64,000 bases of DNA from Phycisphaerae bacterium (GCA_035524355.1 DATKPA010000021.1:1-64000); one strand, 5' to 3'; positions 1,651-19,032 are shown, numbered from the stretch's first letter. Translations and numbers: made by a program. The notes: generated by a model not told the origin, from the letters alone.

Positions 1651-1694
1651 ACAGCATCACACGCAAACAGGAGCGAAGCTCCGAAAGAAAATAG

Positions 1695-1714
1695 CCCCCA
1701 CCGTGAGGTGGGGG
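1695..1714. repeat. REP-like hairpin CCCCCACC-GTGA-GGTGGGGG flanking RAYT (left copy)
   Basis: perfect 8-bp stem/4-nt loop palindrome immediately 3' of the RAYT gene; inverted counterpart at 2307-2326. Confidence 0.6.
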
Positions 1715-1802
1715 TAAGCTCGGACAAACAATGTTGAGGGCCAACGGCCCGACACTTTTCTTCTTGGGGACAATGACATTGAGGGGGGTTGGCGCTCCTC
1801 AC

Positions 1803-2246
1803 TCACAAAAACACATACCGGGAGTCATAGGGAACGCGGTGCTTCTCCAAAAACTCAATCAACTCTTCCTGAAACGATTTGCGCGAATGATGCGACTTCT
1901 GATTCTCAATATAGCGCCGCACCGCCTCCTCCCCCGAAACACTCACCGAAAACGCCGCATATCCCTTCTGCCAATCAAACACCCGATCCCCCAACTCCTC
2001 ATGTACAAACCGCGAAGAATTCGCCTTCATCGCCGACGCGGCATCTGCCAACGACAATGTCGCCGGGAGCGAAGTGAACACATGTATATGATCCGCCACG
2101 CCCCCAACACACAGCAACTTCGCCTTCTTATTCTCCAGAATCCCCCCGATATACGGATACAACCGCTCCTCCCACTCCGCCCGAATCGTTGGTTCGCGTT
2201 TGGCCGTGCTCCAGATGAAATGAACGAGGTTCGAAATGTAGGACAT
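1803..2246 (-). CDS. REP-associated tyrosine transposase (IS200/IS605-like Y1 transposase, RAYT)
   Basis: MSYISNLVHFIWSTAKREP...HIHVF motifs typical of IS200-like/RAYT proteins (HxH and conserved Y near C-term); flanked by inverted REP hairpins; start chosen at MSYISN (longer ORF to 2285 possible). Confidence 0.75.
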   Translation of the reverse strand: MSYISNLVHFIWSTAKREPTIRAEWEERLYPYIGGILENKKAKLLCVGGVADHIHVFTSLPATLSLADAASAMKANSSRFVHEELGDRVFDWQKGYAAFSVSVSGEEAVRRYIENQKSHHSRKSFQEELIEFLEKHRVPYDSRYVFL

Positions 2247-2306
2247 GGGCGTCTCCGTAAGAAGTGTCGGGCCCTTGGCCCTCAACAGATGTGTGCGGCC
2301 ACTTTA

Positions 2307-2326
2307 CCCACACCTCACGGTGTGGG
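2307..2326. repeat. REP-like hairpin CCCACACC-TCAC-GGTGTGGG flanking RAYT (right copy, inverted)
   Basis: reverse-complement reads CCCACACC-GTGA-GGTGTGGG, same family as 1695-1714 in opposite orientation. Confidence 0.6.
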
Positions 2327-2363
2327 CTATTACCTGCCGGAGCTTCGCTCCTCCCAAAACGCC

Positions 2364-4031
2364 TCAACCCGCCAGCGCCGCCCCCACCACCTCCTGCGCC
2401 TCCCGAATAATCGCATCCAGATGCGCCTGCGACACAAAACTCTCCGCATAAATCTTGTAAATATTCTCCGTCCCCGACGGCCGCGCCGCGAACCACCCGT
2501 TCTTCGTCGTCACCTTCAAACCCCCAATCGGCGCCCCATTCCCCGGCGCATTCGTCAGCTTCGCCTCGATCGAGTCCCCCGCCAATGTCGTCGCCTTCAC
2601 CGCCGCCGGCGTAAGCTTCTTGAACGCCGCCTTCTGCTCCACCGTCGCCGGCGCATCGATGCGGTTATAGAACGGCGTCCCAAACTTCTCCGTCAATTCA
2701 CGGTAATGCACCCCTGGATCCTTCCCCGTCACCGCCGTGATCTCCGCCGCCAGGAGCGCCATGATCGGCCCATCCTTGTCCGTCGACCACGACGTCCCAT
2801 CCATCCGCAGGAACGACGCCCCCGCCGATTCCTCCCCGCCAAAACAAATCGTCCCGTCAAACAACCCCGGCGCAAACCACTTGAACCCCACCGGCACCTC
2901 CACCAGCTTCCTCCCCTCCCCCCCCAAATCCGCCACCACCCGATCGATCATGCTCGAACTCACCACCGTCTTCCCAATCCCCGCACCTTTGCTCCACTTC
3001 GGCCGATGCCCCAGCAAATACTGGATCGCCACCGCCAGGTAATGATTCGGATTCATCAATCCCGCACTCGGCGTGATGATCCCATGCCGATCCGAATCCG
3101 GATCATTCCCCACCGCCACCGCATACTGATCCTTCAACTTCACCAGCCCCGCCATCGCATACGGACTCGAACAGTCCATGCGTATCTTCCCATCGTGATC
3201 CACCGTCATGAACGAAAAAGTCGGATCGATCCGCTTGTTCACGATTGTCATGTTCAGCTTGTGTACATCCGCGATCGCCTCCCAATACGCCACCGACGCT
3301 CCGCCCAGCGGATCCACGCCCAGCTTCACCCCCTTTTCTCGTATTGCCGCGATATCCACCACGCTCGGCAAATCCCGCACGTACGGCCCAACAAAATCCT
3401 CCTGCCGCGTCGTCCCCGTCCCCCCTCCGCGCAGCGCCGCCTCATACCCCATCCGCTTCACCCCCGCATTCCCAGCCTTCAAGTATTCATTCGCCTTGTT
3501 CTGTATCCAGGCAGTGATATCCGTATCCGCCGGTCCCCCATTCGTCGGGTTGTATTTGAACCCGCCATCCGACGGCGGATTGTGCGACGGCGTGATCACG
3601 ATCCCATCGGCCAACCGCTCCTTCCTCCCGCGATTGTGCGTCAGAATCAACCACGAAATCACCGGCGTCGGCGTGAATCCATCCCCGCTCTGAATCACCG
3701 TCTCCACCCCATTTGCCGCCAGCACTTCGAGCGCCGACTTCTCCGCCGGCGCCGAAAGCGCATGCGTGTCCTTGCCCATGAACAGCGGCCCGCTGATCCT
3801 CTCCTTCGCCCGATAATCCACGATCGCCTGCGTGATCGCCAGAATATGCGATTCCGTAAACGTCCTCTCCCCGCCGCCGACTGTCCCCCGATGCCCGCTC
3901 GTCCCGAACGAGACCAGTTGCCGCGGGTCGGAAACGTCCGGCTTCACCGCATAATAATCCGCGATGAGCTTATCGACATGAATGAGCAGTTCCGCCGGAG
4001 CGGACTTTCCCGCAAGCGAACTCAAAGGCAT
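2364..4031 (-). CDS. pgm: phosphoglucomutase (alpha-D-glucose phosphate-specific)
   Basis: 555 aa; GTSGHRG phosphoserine-loop region, TPSHNP active-site Ser loop, full-length PGM architecture. Confidence 0.9.
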
Positions 4032-4288
4032 GGCAGACTCCTTGTTCTTCTCTCTGCTGGATTGTCGTACTCGAAGAGGCTTAACACAAGAAGCGAAAAA
4101 AGCTCTTTACTTTTCCTTTCGACTCGTCACAATTCATGCGACATCAACTCTTTTAGCGCATCGGCTTTCTCCCGGAGAGTTTTCTCACGAAAGCGATCCA
4201 GGGAGATCGTTCATGCAGGGAAGGAATAGCGGAACGCCCCGGCATCCACCGGGTGGTCCTGCAGGTAGAATTTTGCGGAGCATCATCA

Positions 4289-7082: not shown

Positions 7083-7230
7083 TCGCCCGCTCCGAACGTG
7101 CCTGAACAGCAAAACTTTTCGTGGTGTTTGCCGCGCCCGATGGGTATAAGCGTCTGCATCTTTCGCATATGAAGTCCAGGCCTACGACCATCCGCACGCG
7201 TGCGCTCCACGCAGAGGGGTATCGTCTGAT

Positions 7231-7842
7231 ATGAGCTACAAAGAACTCGTGTTCGATTTGATTACGCTCTGGGTCACCATCGACCCCGTCGGCACCCTGC
7301 CGCTCTACTTGTCGGTCACCAAACACATGACCCCTGCCCAGCGCCGGCGCGCCGCAATCCGCGCCTCCATCATCGCCTCCTGCATCCTCGCCGGCTTCCT
7401 CTACCTCGGCCAATACCTGCTCGAAGAAATGCGCATCGAACTTCTCTCCTTCCAGATCGCCGGCGGCATCGTATTGTTTCTGTTCTCCCTCAGCATGATT
7501 TTCGAGAAGGACTCCCCATCCGACGTCGTCCCCGACGCCGGCCGCGATGTCGCCGTCTTCCCCCTCGCCATGCCCTCCATCGCTACACCCGGAGCGCTCC
7601 TCTCCGTCGTCGTTCTGACCAACAACAACACGCACAACTTCTTCCAGGAATCCGCCACTTGCGCCGTGATGCTCGTCGTCCTCGCCATCAATCTCCTGAT
7701 CATGCTGCTCGGCGACCGCATCGTCGCCTTTCTCGGCCGCGCCGGCCTGAGCGTCCTGAGCCGCGTGATGGGAATGATCCTCGCCGCCGCCGCCGTCCAG
7801 ATGGTCTACAGCGCATTGAAGGGCGAGTTGGGCCCCGGATGA
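7231..7842 (+). CDS. MarC family (UPF0056) integral membrane protein
   Basis: 203 aa, 6 TM; N-terminal LITLWVTIDPVGTLPLYLSVT matches MarC/YchE family signature. Confidence 0.8.
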   Translation: MSYKELVFDLITLWVTIDPVGTLPLYLSVTKHMTPAQRRRAAIRASIIASCILAGFLYLGQYLLEEMRIELLSFQIAGGIVLFLFSLSMIFEKDSPSDVVPDAGRDVAVFPLAMPSIATPGALLSVVVLTNNNTHNFFQESATCAVMLVVLAINLLIMLLGDRIVAFLGRAGLSVLSRVMGMILAAAAVQMVYSALKGELGPG

Positions 7843-7979: not shown

Positions 7980-8053
7980 TGGCCCGGGCGGGACTCGAAC
8001 CCGCATCGAACGGGGTTTGAGCCCGCCGCGTCTACCCATTGCGCCACCGGGCC
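7980..8053 (-). tRNA. tRNA-Leu(CAA)-like, class-I shape (no long variable arm)
   Basis: acceptor GGCCCGG/CCGGGCC, Leu-type D-arm GTGGCGCAATGGGTAGACGCG, anticodon loop CTCAAAC, 5-nt variable loop TCGAT, T-arm GCGGGTTCGAGTCCCGC, A73. Confidence 0.6.
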
Positions 8054-8084
8054 GCATGAAGAGTCGGTCCATACAACACGAAAA

Positions 8085-8159
8085 TGCTCCCGGCAGGATT
8101 CGAACCTGCAACAACTGGCACCTCAAGCCAGCGCGTCTACCAAATTGCGCCACGAGAGC
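8085..8159 (-). tRNA. tRNA-Leu(GAG)-like, class-I shape
   Basis: acceptor GCTCTCG/CGGGAGC, D-arm GTGGCGCAATTTGGTAGACGCG (near-identical to E. coli tRNA-Leu D-arm), anticodon arm CTGGC-TTGAGGT-GCCAG, variable TTGTT, A73. Confidence 0.6.
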
Positions 8160-8190: not shown

Positions 8191-8231
8191 ACGGCCAGCA
8201 GGCCGTTTCCCCCCCCCCCCCCCGCTCACCA

Positions 8232-8545: not shown

Positions 8546-8869
8546 ATGCCCTGGGTCGCAACGAGTTTGGCCGTCGGAATTGCAACGCTCTTCACGCTCG
8601 CGGTCGCCCGTTACACAATCGCCGTGATCTACTGGTTACCCCGCCGTCTGCGCTGGCAACGCGCCATGAAGGGACTCTGCCCCTCGTGCGGATACAACCT
8701 TACAGGCAACACGACCGGCATTTGTTCCGAGTGCGGCCAGATCATTCACTCTGCCACAGGGCAGCCGCCCCGAACTCCGTTCCTCGCAACCGAGCGACAA
8801 CCCTGGTGGGTCTGGGCCAGCGTCGGCGCCGCCATGATCGCCGCCGCCATCGTGCGAAACACGATCTGA
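8546..8869 (+). CDS. small zinc-ribbon membrane protein embedded in tRNA array (hypothetical)
   Basis: 107 aa; N-terminal TM helix, CPSCGYNLTGNTTGICSECG zinc-ribbon, C-terminal TM helix; only plus-strand gene inside the minus-strand array. Confidence 0.45.
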   Translation: MPWVATSLAVGIATLFTLAVARYTIAVIYWLPRRLRWQRAMKGLCPSCGYNLTGNTTGICSECGQIIHSATGQPPRTPFLATERQPWWVWASVGAAMIAAAIVRNTI

Positions 8870-8877
8870 GCAACATG

Positions 8878-8951
8878 TGCTCCCGGCAGGACTCGAACCT
8901 GCATCCAACGGTTTTTGAAACCGCCGCGTCTCCCAATTGCGCCACGAGAGC
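8878..8951 (-). tRNA. tRNA-Leu(CAA)-like, class-I shape
   Basis: paralog of 8085-8159 (same acceptor GCTCTCG, D-arm GTGGCGCAATTGGGAGACGCG), anticodon arm GCGGT-TTCAAAA-ACCGT, variable TGGAT, A73. Confidence 0.6.
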
Positions 8952-15510: not shown

Positions 15511-16626
15511 ATGACCCTCAAGATCCTCATCAAGAACCACGAACGCGGCCTGCTCTTCAAGAACGGCAACTTCCAGCGCGTCCTCGCCCCCGGCGAATAC
15601 ACCCGCTGGAACCGGCTCTTCTCCAACCACGAAGAGGTCACGGTCTTCAACACGCTGGAGACGTTCGTGAAGCATCCGCTTCTGGAGACGTTTGCGACGC
15701 GCCCGGAGTTTTTGGCGGAGGCGCTGGTGCTCTCGCTGAAGGACACGGAGCGGGCGCTGGTGTGGCGCGATGAGCGGCTGTACTGGGTGTTTGGTCCGGG
15801 GCGGCATGCGCTCTGGAAGGCGCCGTACGCGCTGCGGGTCGAGACGTTCGACATCACGGCGCTGCGTTTTGAGCATCCGCAACTGGCGACGGTGCTGCAG
15901 AATTCGTCGGCAGCGCAGTACCTCGAAGGGGTGCAGGTGCCGGCGCATGAAGTGGTGCTGATGTATCGTGACGGTGTGCTGATGGAGCAGCTTCGCGAGG
16001 GTCTGCATGTGTTCTGGAAGGGCACGGGAAAGCTGGCGTTCAAAAGCGTCGACCTGCGGGAGCAGGTCGCGGATGTCGCGGGGCAGGAGATCATGACGGC
16101 GGACAAGGTGACGCTGCGTGTGAACCTGGTCGTGACGTTCCAGGTTGCGGACCCGGTTCTCGCGGTGACGAGCACGGCGGATTATCAGCAGGCGCTGTAC
16201 CGTGAGGCGCAGCTTGTTTTGCGTGCGGCGGTCGGCGGGAAGACGCTCGATGCGCTGCTCGCCGATAAGGAATCGGTCGGTAACGAGGTGCGGTCGACGC
16301 TGACGGCGCGTGCGTCGCAACTGGGTGTGCAGGTGAAGTCGATCGGTTTGCGCGACATCGTGCTGCCGGGCGATATGAAGGAGCTGATGAACCGGGTGAT
16401 CTCCGCCACCAAGGAAGCGGAGGCGAACCTGATCAAGCGCCGCGAGGAAACTGCGGCGGCGCGCAGCCAGGCGAACACGGCGAAGCTGCTTGCGGAGAGC
16501 CCGCAGCTGGCGCGTTTGAAGGAGCTGGAAATGCTGCAGCAGATTCTTGCCGGCACCAAGACGACGTTTGTGCTTGGCGCGGGGGATTTGACGCAGCAGA
16601 TTCGTGGGCTTGTGAGCACGGAGTAA
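15511..16626 (+). CDS. SPFH/Band-7 (stomatin/prohibitin-like) domain protein
   Basis: 371 aa; good RBS aaggagg; C-terminal VTLRVNLVVTFQVADP...LRDIVLPGDM...EAEANLIKRREETAAARSQAN SPFH core plus coiled-coil; N-terminal region contains two copies of an ERGLLFKNG/VLMEQLREGLHVFWKG-type segment. Confidence 0.8.
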   Translation: MTLKILIKNHERGLLFKNGNFQRVLAPGEYTRWNRLFSNHEEVTVFNTLETFVKHPLLETFATRPEFLAEALVLSLKDTERALVWRDERLYWVFGPGRHALWKAPYALRVETFDITALRFEHPQLATVLQNSSAAQYLEGVQVPAHEVVLMYRDGVLMEQLREGLHVFWKGTGKLAFKSVDLREQVADVAGQEIMTADKVTLRVNLVVTFQVADPVLAVTSTADYQQALYREAQLVLRAAVGGKTLDALLADKESVGNEVRSTLTARASQLGVQVKSIGLRDIVLPGDMKELMNRVISATKEAEANLIKRREETAAARSQANTAKLLAESPQLARLKELEMLQQILAGTKTTFVLGAGDLTQQIRGLVSTE

Positions 16627-16627
16627 C

Positions 16628-16650
16628 GTGGCATGGGCATCCTGCCCATG
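16628..16650. repeat. GTGG-CATGGGC-ATCCT-GCCCATG hairpin repeat (copy 5)
   Basis: identical to copy 2; starts 2 nt after SPFH stop; followed by second hairpin cgatggagtggtc...gaccactccatcg. Confidence 0.6.
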
Positions 16651-16754
16651 ATCGATGGAGTGGTCCCGACGACCACTCCATCGATTCTTCGGCGCGACGC
16701 GATCGCGCTGCAAACATCGCATAATGCCCAGGGATCTGATCCCTGGGCTTTCAC

Positions 16755-16826
16755 TCGCGGGTCGGCCAATTGGTAGGCCAGCGGATTCTGAATCCGCCAA
16801 TGGAGGTTCGAATCCTTCTCCGCGAA
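16755..16826 (+). tRNA. tRNA-Gln(CTG)
   Basis: U1-A72 acceptor TCGCGGG/TCCGCGA, anticodon arm GCGGA-TTCTGAA-TCCGC, T-loop TTCGAAT, A73. Confidence 0.75.
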
Positions 16827-16928
16827 ATTCTGATCTGATGAATCCTTAAAGAGAATCGATCAGCTAATATGGTTCCAGAACGACTTGCGAGGTACAGGAG
16901 GTGGCCCGTGGATTTAAAGGCAAAACAG

Positions 16929-17546
16929 ATGTGGGAAGATTTTTTGAATCCCGAGGTACTCCGATTTCGACTGGCCATCTCGTCCATCTACATCGTTACT
17001 TTTGAAGCATTGAAGGATTCTATTACCGATCACATCAAAACATTTTTTTGGACGGGGTTTGAGGACGGTAAGGAAGTTTTGGACCAAAAGTACGAATCGG
17101 ATGTTCTGAGCCGAAATCGGAGTCCCGTTCATGCCAGCCTTGAGTGGCTCCAAGAACGGAAGGCAATCGATGATAAGGACATCGAATCATTCGTCCGCGT
17201 AAAGGATTGTAGAAACAAGCTCGCCCATGGTTTGCTGAAAGTAGTGACTAAGGATGGCATTCCGTCTGATTTTGAGGAAAGGTTTCAGGAAATGGTCGCT
17301 CTCATGAAGAAGATCGACCACTGGTGGATCATCAATTTTGAAATTCCAATTAATTCTGACTTCGACGGCAAAGAAATTGATGAAGAACAAATCATGTCGG
17401 GACGGTTGATGTCGCTGCTAGTGCTCTACGACATTGCCCTCGGTTCCCCCGAGAAAAGCAGCTATTACCATGACGAGTTTCGCAAGCGGTGCGACGAGAA
17501 CCAAGCGAACACAACTAAGGAAAGACCCGCACATGACGAACGTTGA
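16929..17546 (+). CDS. hypothetical protein with HEPN-like Rx4H motif (RNKLAH), encoded on AT-rich island
   Basis: ORF 16869-17546 (start at MWEDF 16929 preferred); GC ~45% vs ~63% flanks; CRNKLAHGLL fits HEPN R-[N]-x3-H RNase motif; island begins at 3' end of tRNA-Gln and overlaps rtcB start by 15 nt. Confidence 0.5.
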   Translation: MWEDFLNPEVLRFRLAISSIYIVTFEALKDSITDHIKTFFWTGFEDGKEVLDQKYESDVLSRNRSPVHASLEWLQERKAIDDKDIESFVRVKDCRNKLAHGLLKVVTKDGIPSDFEERFQEMVALMKKIDHWWIINFEIPINSDFDGKEIDEEQIMSGRLMSLLVLYDIALGSPEKSSYYHDEFRKRCDENQANTTKERPAHDER

Positions 17547-19032
17547 CTACTACTTCATCCCCACCGGCGAAGCCACCGCCCTCCTCCCCGCTCGCGAAAA
17601 ATCCCTCTCCCCCATCACCGTCATCGCCACCGAAAAACTCCGCAGCACCTTCGACGACCTCTGCATCACCCAGGCCCTCAACTCCCGCGGCGCCCCCGGC
17701 GTCACCGAGCTCGTCCTCAACCCCGACGCCCACTGCGGCTACGGCGCCCCCATCGGCTGCGTCCTCGTCTCCCCCACCCACATCTACCCCGGCCCCGTCG
17801 GCGTCGACATCAAATGCTCCATGTCCCTCCTCCAGACCAACATCCCCGCGCGCGAAATCAACAACCCCAAAATCCGTCGCAACATTATTGATGCCATCCT
17901 CGAACGCGTCCCCACCGGCGCTGGCCGCGGGCAGCGCTCGGTCAAGAAATCGCGCCGTGTATCCGTCGAACAGGGCAAGCAACTCGCCATCCACGGCGCC
18001 TCGCGCGAAGTCCTCGAATCACTCAGCATCCCCGTCGAATGGGCCGCCCGCTGCGAAGACGCCCACCACCTCGGCTCCGATGGCACCACCGACTCCCTCG
18101 CGCGCCGCCTCGACCAGCTCCTCGCCAACCGCGTCCTTTCCAACTTCGAAGAAAAAATCCACCAGCTCGGCTCCTACGGCGGCGGCAACCACTTCGGCGA
18201 AGCCGAAATCGTCAACATCCGCCCCGGCATGGAAAAAATCGCCGACACCTTCGGCCTCCAGAACGGAAACGTCGCCTTCCTCTCCCACTGCGGCTCGCGC
18301 GGCTTCGGCTACCAGCTCGCCAGCAACCAATTCAAAACCCTCCAGGCCCAGTTCGAAAAATGGTCCACCCCCTTCCCCGCCGGCGACAAACAACTCGTCT
18401 ACGCCCCCCTCGGCACCTACGAGGCCGACCGGTACATCGACGACATGTCGCTGGGCGCCAACTTCGCCACCCTCAACCACCTGCTCATCAACGCGCTGGT
18501 TCTCGAAGCGTTTCAGGAAGTGCTGCCGGGAACGAAGGGAAATCTCGTCTACTTCATCTCGCACAACATCGCGCGGCTAGAGCCGGTGAAGAACAGCCCG
18601 CTCGGCATGGCCTGGGTTCATCGCAAGGGAGCCACCCGCGCCTTCTCCGCCGGCCATCCGCAACTCCAGAACACGCCCTTCGCCGCCACCGGCCACCCGA
18701 TTCTCCTCCCCGGAAATCCGCAGGCGGGCAGCAGCGTCATGGTCGCCACCGAAGGCGCACAAAAATCCGCCTACTCCGTCAACCACGGCGCCGGCCGGGT
18801 GAAAGGCCGCAAAGCCGCCATCCGCGAGTTCGATCAGAAGGAAATCGACCAGAGCTTCGAGGACGCGGATATCCTCACCAACTGCCGCCAGTACCCGAAG
18901 GACGAAGCCCCCGCCGCGTATAAGGATTTCAACGAAGTGCTGAAATCCGTTGAGACCGCCGACCTCGCCAAAGAAGTCGCCAGGCTCCGCGCCCGCTTCG
19001 TCATCAAAGACTCCGACAAGGCCGACGACTGA
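17532..19032 (+). CDS. rtcB: RNA-splicing ligase RtcB (3'-phosphate/5'-hydroxyl RNA ligase)
   Basis: NPDAHCGYG, HNIA, VHRKGAT, NHGAGR metal/GTP-binding motifs of RtcB; start at MTNVDYYF (track ORF begins 17434 in AT-rich island). Confidence 0.9.

Follow-up and report, generated by a model that had tools for sequence, protein, structure and literature searches.

Short-armed tRNA-Leu genes in a tRNA array adjoining the rtc RNA-repair locus of a Phycisphaerae bacterium

Four tRNA genes with leucine anticodons and a variable loop of only 5 nt lie within a 64-kb stretch of DNA (64,000 nt, hereafter the window) from a metagenome genome of a Phycisphaerae bacterium (Planctomycetota). The genes are real and, to judge from their sequence and its conservation, they are probably functional tRNA-Leu genes. 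As an overall account we favor, as likely though well short of certain, a reading in which they are functional tRNA-Leu isoacceptors, charged by LeuRS, within a damage-induced spare L-array, probably under a sigma-54-type promoter next to rtcR; leucine charging, expression, and control of the array by RtcR are what we infer from the evidence set out below. An earlier, sequence-only reading had noticed the four genes but had missed the context that helps to explain them, namely, an accessory L-array with an internal HNH gene, situated beside an rtc RNA-repair locus (Table 1).

Table 1. Coordinates, strand, and supporting evidence for the array, its Leu genes, and the adjoining rtc locus
Feature	Coordinates	Strand	Evidence or details
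L-array, 30 tRNA genes, one orientation, all 20 amino acids	7868..12504	-	ARAGORN
tRNA-Leu(CAA), class I	7980..8053	-	Variable loop TCGAT, acceptor stem GGCCCGG, A73; ARAGORN, Rfam 60.2 bits
tRNA-Leu(GAG), class I	8085..8159	-	Variable loop TTGTT, acceptor stem GCTCTCG, G37, A73; ARAGORN, Rfam 58.3 bits
tRNA-Leu(CAA), class I	8878..8951	-	Variable loop TGGAT, acceptor stem GCTCTCG, A73; ARAGORN, Rfam 58.6 bits
HNH endonuclease gene in array, between tRNA-Pro(CGG) and tRNA-Met	9954..10574	-	Pfam HNH_5 6e-18, HNH 9e-16
tRNA-Leu(CAG), class I	12431..12504	-	Variable loop ATCCT, acceptor stem GGCCCGG, A73; ARAGORN, Rfam 53.8 bits
Conserved structured leader, ~310 nt, promoter-like site to first tRNA	12505..12835	-	Alignment, RNAalifold -107.5 kcal/mol
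Sigma-54-type promoter-like site (TGGCATGCTTCCTGC), upstream of array	12843..12857	-	Consensus and conservation
rtcR, sigma-54 activator of RNA-repair operon	13078..14703	-	Pfam RtcR 9e-84, Sigma54_activat 4e-49
Sigma-54-type promoter-like site of divergent rtcB-side operon (AGGCACACTCCTCGCT)	14838..14853	+	Conservation in four genomes
tRNA-Asn(GTT) in rtcB-side operon	14945..15019	+	Rfam 67.8 bits
rtcB-side operon (Band7/SPFH, tRNA-Gln(CTG), ORF, rtcB)	15511..19032	+	
Band7/SPFH gene	15511..16626	+	Pfam Band_7 5e-30
tRNA-Gln(CTG) in rtcB-side operon	16755..16826	+	Rfam 60.1 bits
rtcB	17434..19032	+	Pfam RtcB 1e-100

ARAGORN and Rfam agree on tRNA genes at all four loci, with the boundaries and anticodons (CAA, GAG, CAA, and CAG) that had been assigned to them from the sequence, and their scores against the Rfam tRNA model RF00005 (53.8 to 60.2 bits, against a threshold of 29 bits) place them in the family. 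Dissection of the cloverleaves gave, in each gene, a 7-bp acceptor stem, U8, a 3-bp D-stem with a D-loop of 11 to 12 nt, a 5-bp anticodon stem, a 5-nt variable loop, a 5-bp T-stem, and A73, bearing out the loop, anticodon stem, and discriminator base described earlier. A wrong fold that conceals a long arm had been named as one danger to this description. Each gene is 74 to 75 nt long without CCA, so that no space is left for a long arm, and free-energy folding, which returned the cloverleaf for three of the four genes, never yielded a long arm in any of them. We also used a pattern made up of the Leu D-arm and a distance to the T-loop that leaves room only for a variable loop of 4 to 6 nt, and found that it matched three of the four genes, compared with none in 100 shuffles. 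With loops of 5 nt, the genes lack the long variable arm that defines class II; as bacterial cytoplasmic tRNAs that combine a Leu anticodon with a 5-nt loop, they fit the definition of type I tRNA-Leu. ARAGORN found no long-armed Leu gene among the 32 tRNA genes of the window (30 of them in the array), as expected from the earlier statement that the array holds no class II tRNA-Leu, and the two pairs recognized from the acceptor stems, GGCCCGG (CAG and the CAA gene at 7980) and GCTCTCG (GAG and the CAA gene at 8878), are as described.

The rest of each molecule looks like tRNA-Leu. When the genes were aligned to E. coli leuV, the only large difference was one clean gap at the arm, and the class-II-type D-arm with its 3-bp stem was kept. 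The sequence-only reading had called all of the D-arms almost identical to those of bacterial tRNA-Leu; this is true of three genes, in which the D-arm reads GTGGCGCAAT(T)TGGTAGACGCG compared with GTGGCGGAATTGGTAGACGCG in leuV, but not of the CAG gene, the first of the array, whose D-stem has diverged (GTGATGCAAACGGCAGACAT). Even so, this gene keeps A14, A15, G18G19, and A21. Leu tRNAs that read CUN codons usually carry G37; the CAG gene has A37. A14, A15:U48, G18G19, and A73, which make up the identity set of the E. coli and Aquifex LeuRS enzymes (PMC9976931, PMC6614811), are present in all four genes. Similarly, among the 128 class-I Leu-anticodon tRNAs of all of the loci collected at that stage, A73 was found in 123, A14 in 124, and A15:U48 in 121.

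To compare isotype with anticodon, as the sequence-only reading had proposed, we built one profile per isotype from the tRNAs of viral and genomic loci, after masking the anticodon and taking out the variable region; only long-armed Leu tRNAs went into the Leu profile. Leu was the best profile for all four genes (55.6 bits for the CAA gene at 7980, 49.8 for GAG, 53.0 for the CAA gene at 8878, and 37.7 for CAG), with a margin over the other isotypes of 8 to 12 bits, the CAA gene at 7980 lying 12 bits above its next profile. This classifier is crude (it named 18 of the 32 window tRNAs correctly), and we therefore used only large margins, among the largest of which are those for Leu. BLAST of a whole Leu gene against E. 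coli genomes was tried as an isotype test and rejected, as it ranked tRNA-Arg at the top because of the generic T-arm; the 5′ half of a Leu gene gave no match to E. coli genomes at that database size.

The reverse anomaly occurs in the same array. The tRNA-Cys(GCA) gene at 9129-9213 (minus strand; 84 to 85 nt, with U73) has a long variable arm with a 4-bp stem, as do tRNA-Cys(GCA) genes at L126 15517-15601 (92% identical between window and L126), L325 1201-1284, and L326 736-820; among the Cys genes of all of the loci collected, 3 of 37 are long. With the arm removed, the tRNA-Cys core scored best on the Cys profile (41.0 bits, compared with 33.8 bits on the Ser profile), and the tRNA might be charged by CysRS or SerRS.

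Comparison with related genomes shows that the genes are conserved. A sister species (L126), whose RtcR is 89% identical to that of the window, carries, downstream of rtcR, an array of 30 genes syntenic with that of the window, in which the Leu genes (CAG, CAA, GAG, and TAA) are short-armed, and this synteny implies that the array is a stable chromosomal resident. Identity between the two species is 71 to 97% for the tRNA genes, whereas the spacers are mostly below 50%; the Leu genes are 86, 97, 88, and 87% identical to their counterparts, the value of 97% belonging to the CAA gene at 8878. Out of 100 stem pairs compared between the Leu orthologues, 94 were unchanged, 2 had changed on both sides and 3 on one side with pairing kept, and 1 was broken; there are compensatory changes at 28:42 in the GAG gene and at 10:25 (A-U to G-C) in the CAG gene. 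In one pair of orthologues the wobble base differs (CAA in the window gene at 7980, TAA in L126), pointing to an anticodon change after duplication and thus supporting the earlier suggestion of duplication followed by anticodon diversification. At the syntenic position in a third genome, from another metagenome (L325), Leu(GAG) is a class II gene of 82 nt with a 13-nt arm and yet shares its T-arm, anticodon loop, and 3′ acceptor strand with the Leu(GAG) gene of the window; the CAA and TAA Leu genes of L325 are short-armed. The long and the short arm are thus both found in a single tRNA-Leu lineage, and the most economical reading is that the lineage of the window lost the arm.

A related arrangement is found in a Myxococcales metagenome-assembled genome (L156; JANPFD010000239.1, 5883-18776), whose RtcR and Band7 proteins are 60 and 48% identical to those of the window. 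There, two RlaP genes, rtcA, and rtcB are transcribed divergently from rtcR; on the strand of rtcR itself, the next genes are Band7, two ORFs, and an array of 28 tRNAs that encloses an HNH gene and includes Leu genes for GAG, CAG, and CAA of 75 to 78 nt. The HNH protein of the window is 83% identical to that of L126, 73% to that of L325, and 43% to that of L156. Among 80 rtcR loci, an array was found only in close Phycisphaerae relatives and in this one Myxococcales genome; by a rough estimate, it is very unlikely that an array would lie within 10 kb of rtcR twice by chance. Another locus, L140 (Phycisphaerales OFTM189), has a small group at 7207-7546, between Band7 and rtcB genes, that consists of Leu(TAA) (76 nt), Arg, Leu(TAG) (74 nt), and Pro; its two Leu genes lack the long arm and have a different D-arm (GTAGCCCAA..AGAGGC) that resembles that of the Anabaena Leu(CAA) gene.

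The array of the window packs 30 genes into 4.64 kb in an unbroken series from 12504 down to 7868, including tRNA-Ile(TAT) and two Met genes. An L-array is described as having at least 20 tRNA genes at a density of at least 2 per kb (Tran et al. 2016, PMC4758250), and tRNA array units or L-arrays are defined by such traits (PMC4758250; Santamaria-Gomez et al. 2021, PMC8421152); in gene number, density, single orientation, and possession of an HNH gene, the array in the window is an L-array. The array lies in bacterial chromosomal DNA that also encodes SpoVR, type II secretion proteins, RtcR, and RtcB. The 64-kb window showed no phage structural genes, and BLAST of the array against GenBank phages gave matches to single tRNAs only and no related array. 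A scan of the array region for sigma-70 promoters and terminators was uninformative (1 promoter-like site versus 1.5 expected). Several assemblies, including a 221-kb ENA contig, stop inside or just before the array (L001 to L003, L124, and L125, from the source genome and two related ones), and as a consequence the array is likely to be underrepresented in metagenome-assembled genomes.

Several further observations concern the array and the rest of the window. A 107-aa ORF inside the array (8546-8869, plus strand) has predicted membrane segments, a CPSCGYNL...CSECG motif, and no Pfam match; it is absent from L126, in which the spacer is 19 nt versus 371 nt in the window. A run of 15 C residues (8209-8223), which reads as G on the strand of the tRNAs, is part of the spacer that separates tRNA-Arg(CCG) from tRNA-Leu(GAG). 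ARAGORN drew the tRNA-Thr(CGT) gene at 9044-9116 (minus strand; Rfam 49.3 bits) with three acceptor-stem mismatches, which may reflect decay of this gene within the array or a misplacing of its boundaries. Outside the array, the Rfam small RNA Acido-Lenti-1 has two matches, at 1669-1714 (minus strand) and 2307-2352 (plus strand), scoring 44.4 and 46.6 bits versus a threshold of 37, one just before and one inside an 832-aa ORF (1731-4229). GC skew is very strong and switches sign from block to block (-0.30 to -0.45 at 1 to 8 kb and 18 to 26 kb, +0.15 to +0.36 at 32 to 48 kb) and seems to follow gene orientation, the coding strands being C rich.

The rtcR gene lies directly upstream of the array and on the same strand. 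Over the stretch from rtcR to the first tRNA, about 230 nt are poorly conserved, after which conservation begins sharply with TTTGGCA[TC]-N7-[CT][TC]GCGTATAG. The site in question is the sole match to TGGCAY-N5-YYGC on either strand of the 64-kb window, and its GG and GC elements are kept in L126 and L125, with a variable spacer between them. We derived this sigma-54-like pattern from the cross-species alignment; a search with the sigma-54 consensus, allowing two mismatches, gave no more matches than expected by chance and missed the conserved site. TGGCAY-N5-YYGC also occurs at the expected position of the rtcBA promoter in L156, while no clear sigma-54-like site was found before the array of that genome. 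The site of the divergent rtcB-side operon is conserved as GGCAC-N5-CTCG[CT]TATA in four genomes. From its match and conservation, we infer that the site upstream of the array may act as a promoter; no RtcR binding site was identified. RtcR is described as a sigma-54 activator that responds to damaged tRNAs (PMC7790460), which makes the joint induction of repair and spare tRNAs a reasonable model.

Between the promoter-like site and the first tRNA lies a leader that RNAalifold draws as several long hairpins, with the variable sites and indels in the hairpin loops, and for which Rfam has no family. A 54-aa ORF (12585-12749) overlaps the leader, with an amino acid identity of 71 to 82%. The block was considered as a 54-aa gene, the indels being in frame, and this was rejected, since amino acid identity does not exceed nucleotide identity and Pfam finds nothing. 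The placing of the indels in hairpin loops and the relation of the two identities make a structured RNA likelier than a coding sequence, and the ORF is probably noncoding.

On the rtcB side, tRNA-Gln(CTG) occupies the equivalent place in L124 to L126. The first gene after the rtcB-side promoter differs: in L124 to L126 it encodes a protein that starts MANKSLFKS...NSHGAPAYKL, which may be Ro60/TROVE-like, and the window has the tRNA-Asn gene and other sequence there. In several unrelated rtcR loci (L145, L158, and L159), a lone tRNA gene lies on the strand opposite rtcR, some 330 nt upstream of it.

Short-armed Leu tRNAs are also found well beyond these genomes. At least 120 IMG/VR contigs match the pattern of Leu D-arm and 4- to 6-nt variable loop, and among the matches listed, 72 of 100 pattern-bearing tRNAs have Leu anticodons; many of the tRNAs belong to clusters, the largest with 42 tRNAs. 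In 109 distinct short-armed Leu sequences, pairing holds at 97.5% of stem positions, with 4 to 6 pair types at most positions and an invariant U48. A less biased sample, selected on the D-arm alone, contained 7 short-armed tRNAs among 62 with Leu anticodons, a fraction that is rough, as are short and long fractions in general here, because the sample includes host attachment-site tRNAs; in the viral loci, 70 of 71 Ser genes and 26 of 32 Tyr genes had the long arm, whereas genes with Leu anticodons frequently had a short one. Among GenBank mycobacteriophages, many annotated tRNA-Trp genes (e.g., NC_022965.1 5479-5548) are 77% identical over their full length to the window Leu(CAA) gene at 8878-8951, and the single-base difference between CCA and CAA offers a hint of a short-armed Leu body whose anticodon has shifted. 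A limited literature search found no general survey of the short Leu arm in mobile tRNA sets or phages.

Although a review holds that tRNA-Leu is long-armed everywhere but in animal mitochondria (PMC9976931), and the sequence-only reading had likewise taken an arm of 13 to 15 nt to be universal in bacterial tRNA-Leu, the viral contigs and three bacterial cases contradict this. The first is the type I tRNA-Leu(CAA) of Streptomyces coelicolor, which, like the genes of the window, is bacterial and combines a Leu anticodon with a 5-nt variable loop; it is leucylated and essential (it could not be deleted) (Fan et al., NAR 2019, PMC6614811). It is a genuine substrate for translation, and its charging depends on how many nucleotides the loop has and not on which they are (PMC6614811). 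It differs in being a single chromosomal housekeeping gene beside four long-armed Leu isoacceptors, whereas all four Leu genes of the window array are short-armed. Moreover, the S. coelicolor LeuRS ignores A73 and charging requires a particular LeuRS domain. E. coli LeuRS did not charge it, and the ability was mapped to that LeuRS domain (PMC6614811), from which it follows that charging of the window genes depends on the LeuRS of the host. The argument made earlier from E. coli LeuRS (that it relies mainly on A73 and the tertiary core) is accordingly qualified by the failure of that enzyme on the S. coelicolor tRNA; variants of E. coli tRNA-Leu that lack the arm retain activity (PMC9976931).

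The second case is a horizontally acquired tRNA cluster of mycobacteria, in which Leu(TAG) has a short variable loop and the chromosomal copy has a normal arm (Behra et al. 2019, PMC6582537). Phage and mycobacterial clusters (PMC6582537; Morgado and Vicente 2018-2019) resemble the array in their short-loop Leu genes, internal HNH gene, and tRNA-Ile(TAT); unlike phage clusters, the window shows no phage structural genes and its array is syntenic in a sister species. The third is the trn operon on a plasmid of Anabaena PCC 7120, an L-array in which we found four Leu genes of 75 to 78 nt, the Leu(GAG) copy having a defective T-arm. It shares with the window an array in one orientation, an HNH gene, a link to rtcB and a slipin/Band7 gene, and four short Leu genes, and L-arrays in general have 20 to more than 40 tRNA genes in one orientation and a patchy distribution. 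According to the Anabaena papers, 23 of the 26 tRNAs of this operon are aminoacylated in vivo, 3 of the 26 are pseudogenes, and its tRNAs occur in polysomes; with four Leu genes, at least one short-armed Leu tRNA must be charged, in the sense of aminoacylation as such, the amino acid not being specified as leucine. The L-array, rtcB, the slipin (Band7) gene, and the HNH gene are placed by the same papers in one stress regulon under TrcR, which its authors term a functional equivalent of RtcR (PMC8421152, PMC10272220). Anabaena has the repressor TrcR and is without RtcR and sigma-54, whereas in the window (Planctomycetota) the array is joined to rtcR, with a sigma-54-like site and the 310-nt leader. 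In the accessible portions of the array papers (PMC4758250, PMC8421152, PMC10272220) we found no mention of the short Leu arm. Animal mitochondrial tRNA-Leu is likewise of class I, and A73 and A14 serve it as identity elements (PMC9976931), but it belongs to another lineage and has a degenerate elbow, whereas the window genes keep the canonical bacterial Leu D-arm and T-loop.

How a Leu tRNA might dispense with its arm can be set out as follows. SerRS and bacterial TyrRS make use of the long arm, which LeuRS does not need. In the reading that we favor, the long arm would have shrunk to a loop of 5 nt, with the Leu D-arm and the LeuRS identity set retained. Bacterial LeuRS reads A73, A14, and the A15:U48/G18G19 elbow and not the arm, and this would account for the loss of the arm from Leu tRNAs in mobile sets and for its near-constant presence in Ser tRNAs; the LeuRS of the host would charge the short-armed Leu tRNAs. 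The four genes would be the Leu complement (readers of UUG and CUN) of an accessory, horizontally spread L-array, and the array would be a spare tRNA set expressed upon damage to the housekeeping tRNA pool or to translation, probably from the sigma-54-type promoter beside rtcR and together with the RtcB repair operon. We entertain only tentatively a broader version, in which the damage-induced, RtcR/sigma-54-controlled spare operon includes a new leader RNA, and loss of the arm is general in mobile sets and serves, perhaps, as an escape from host toxins or nucleases to which long-armed tRNAs fall prey through recognition.

The sequence-only reading had left the choice open between compact isoacceptors and decoys or pseudo-tRNAs. 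The identity set, the Leu profile, and the conservation of the genes fit functional isoacceptors best, and they give nothing in favor of decoys or pseudo-tRNAs. Nevertheless, the setting of the array, next to a system that senses tRNA damage, would also suit a role against toxins, in which the short-armed Leu tRNAs, and perhaps the whole array, serve as decoys or sponges for toxins that cleave or modify tRNAs or as toxin-resistant replacements. A sponge role was proposed by the Anabaena authors (PMC8421152), tRNA array units have been discussed as anti-defense elements (PMC12803027), short-armed Leu genes are enriched on viral contigs, and, for the resistant variant, a tRNA that has lost the arm no longer presents a feature by which some toxins recognize their targets. 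However, a decoy would have no use for the full LeuRS identity set and anticodon-loop features, and coverage of all 20 amino acids suits translation, as do the aminoacylation and polysome association of the operonic tRNAs of Anabaena; no toxin dependent on the Leu arm was identified, nor any toxin gene in the 64-kb window. We regard this role as improbable.

We consider it very unlikely that the four genes are decaying, nonfunctional copies in a mobile array. L-arrays do hold some pseudogenes, as in Anabaena, the window has its ill-matched tRNA-Thr(CGT), and the Leu genes would be dispensable if housekeeping Leu genes exist, as we assume; but pseudo-tRNAs are marked by broken stems, loss of invariant residues, and conservation no higher than that of the flanks, and in the four genes we found all stems intact (with Rfam scores of 54 to 60 bits), conservation well above that of the spacers, and stem substitutions that keep pairing. 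In addition, U48, A14, A15, and A73 are conserved in more than 100 distinct family members. It is more improbable still that the genes carry another amino acid to Leu codons, recoding them or causing deliberate mistranslation. Identity that does not depend on the anticodon permits such isotype switches, precedents exist elsewhere (e.g., the nematode nev-tRNAs), and Leu is not the best-scoring profile for the Leu-anticodon tRNAs of L140 and L156; against this, the window genes score best on the Leu profile, they keep A73 and the Leu elbow, and we found in them no determinant of another synthetase, neither G3:U70 (3:70 is C-G or U-A) nor a SerRS arm.

Taken together, the results call for no new category: this is type I tRNA-Leu inside an L-array, both already known. 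Two aspects are modestly new, namely, how general arm loss appears to be among mobile Leu tRNAs and the physical linkage between an L-array and rtcR, accompanied by a sigma-54-like, promoter-like site and an unclassified structured leader. The data from the window, the viral contigs, and Anabaena indicate that short-armed Leu tRNAs recur in mobile tRNA sets, which bears on tRNA annotation, on the rules of LeuRS recognition, and on the design of compact or orthogonal tRNAs. That an L-array adjoins rtcR, Band7, and rtcB in two distant phyla lends support to a view that has come mainly from Anabaena, in which L-arrays supply spare parts for use alongside RNA repair when the tRNA pool is damaged, and it yields the testable prediction that the array depends on RtcR and sigma-54.
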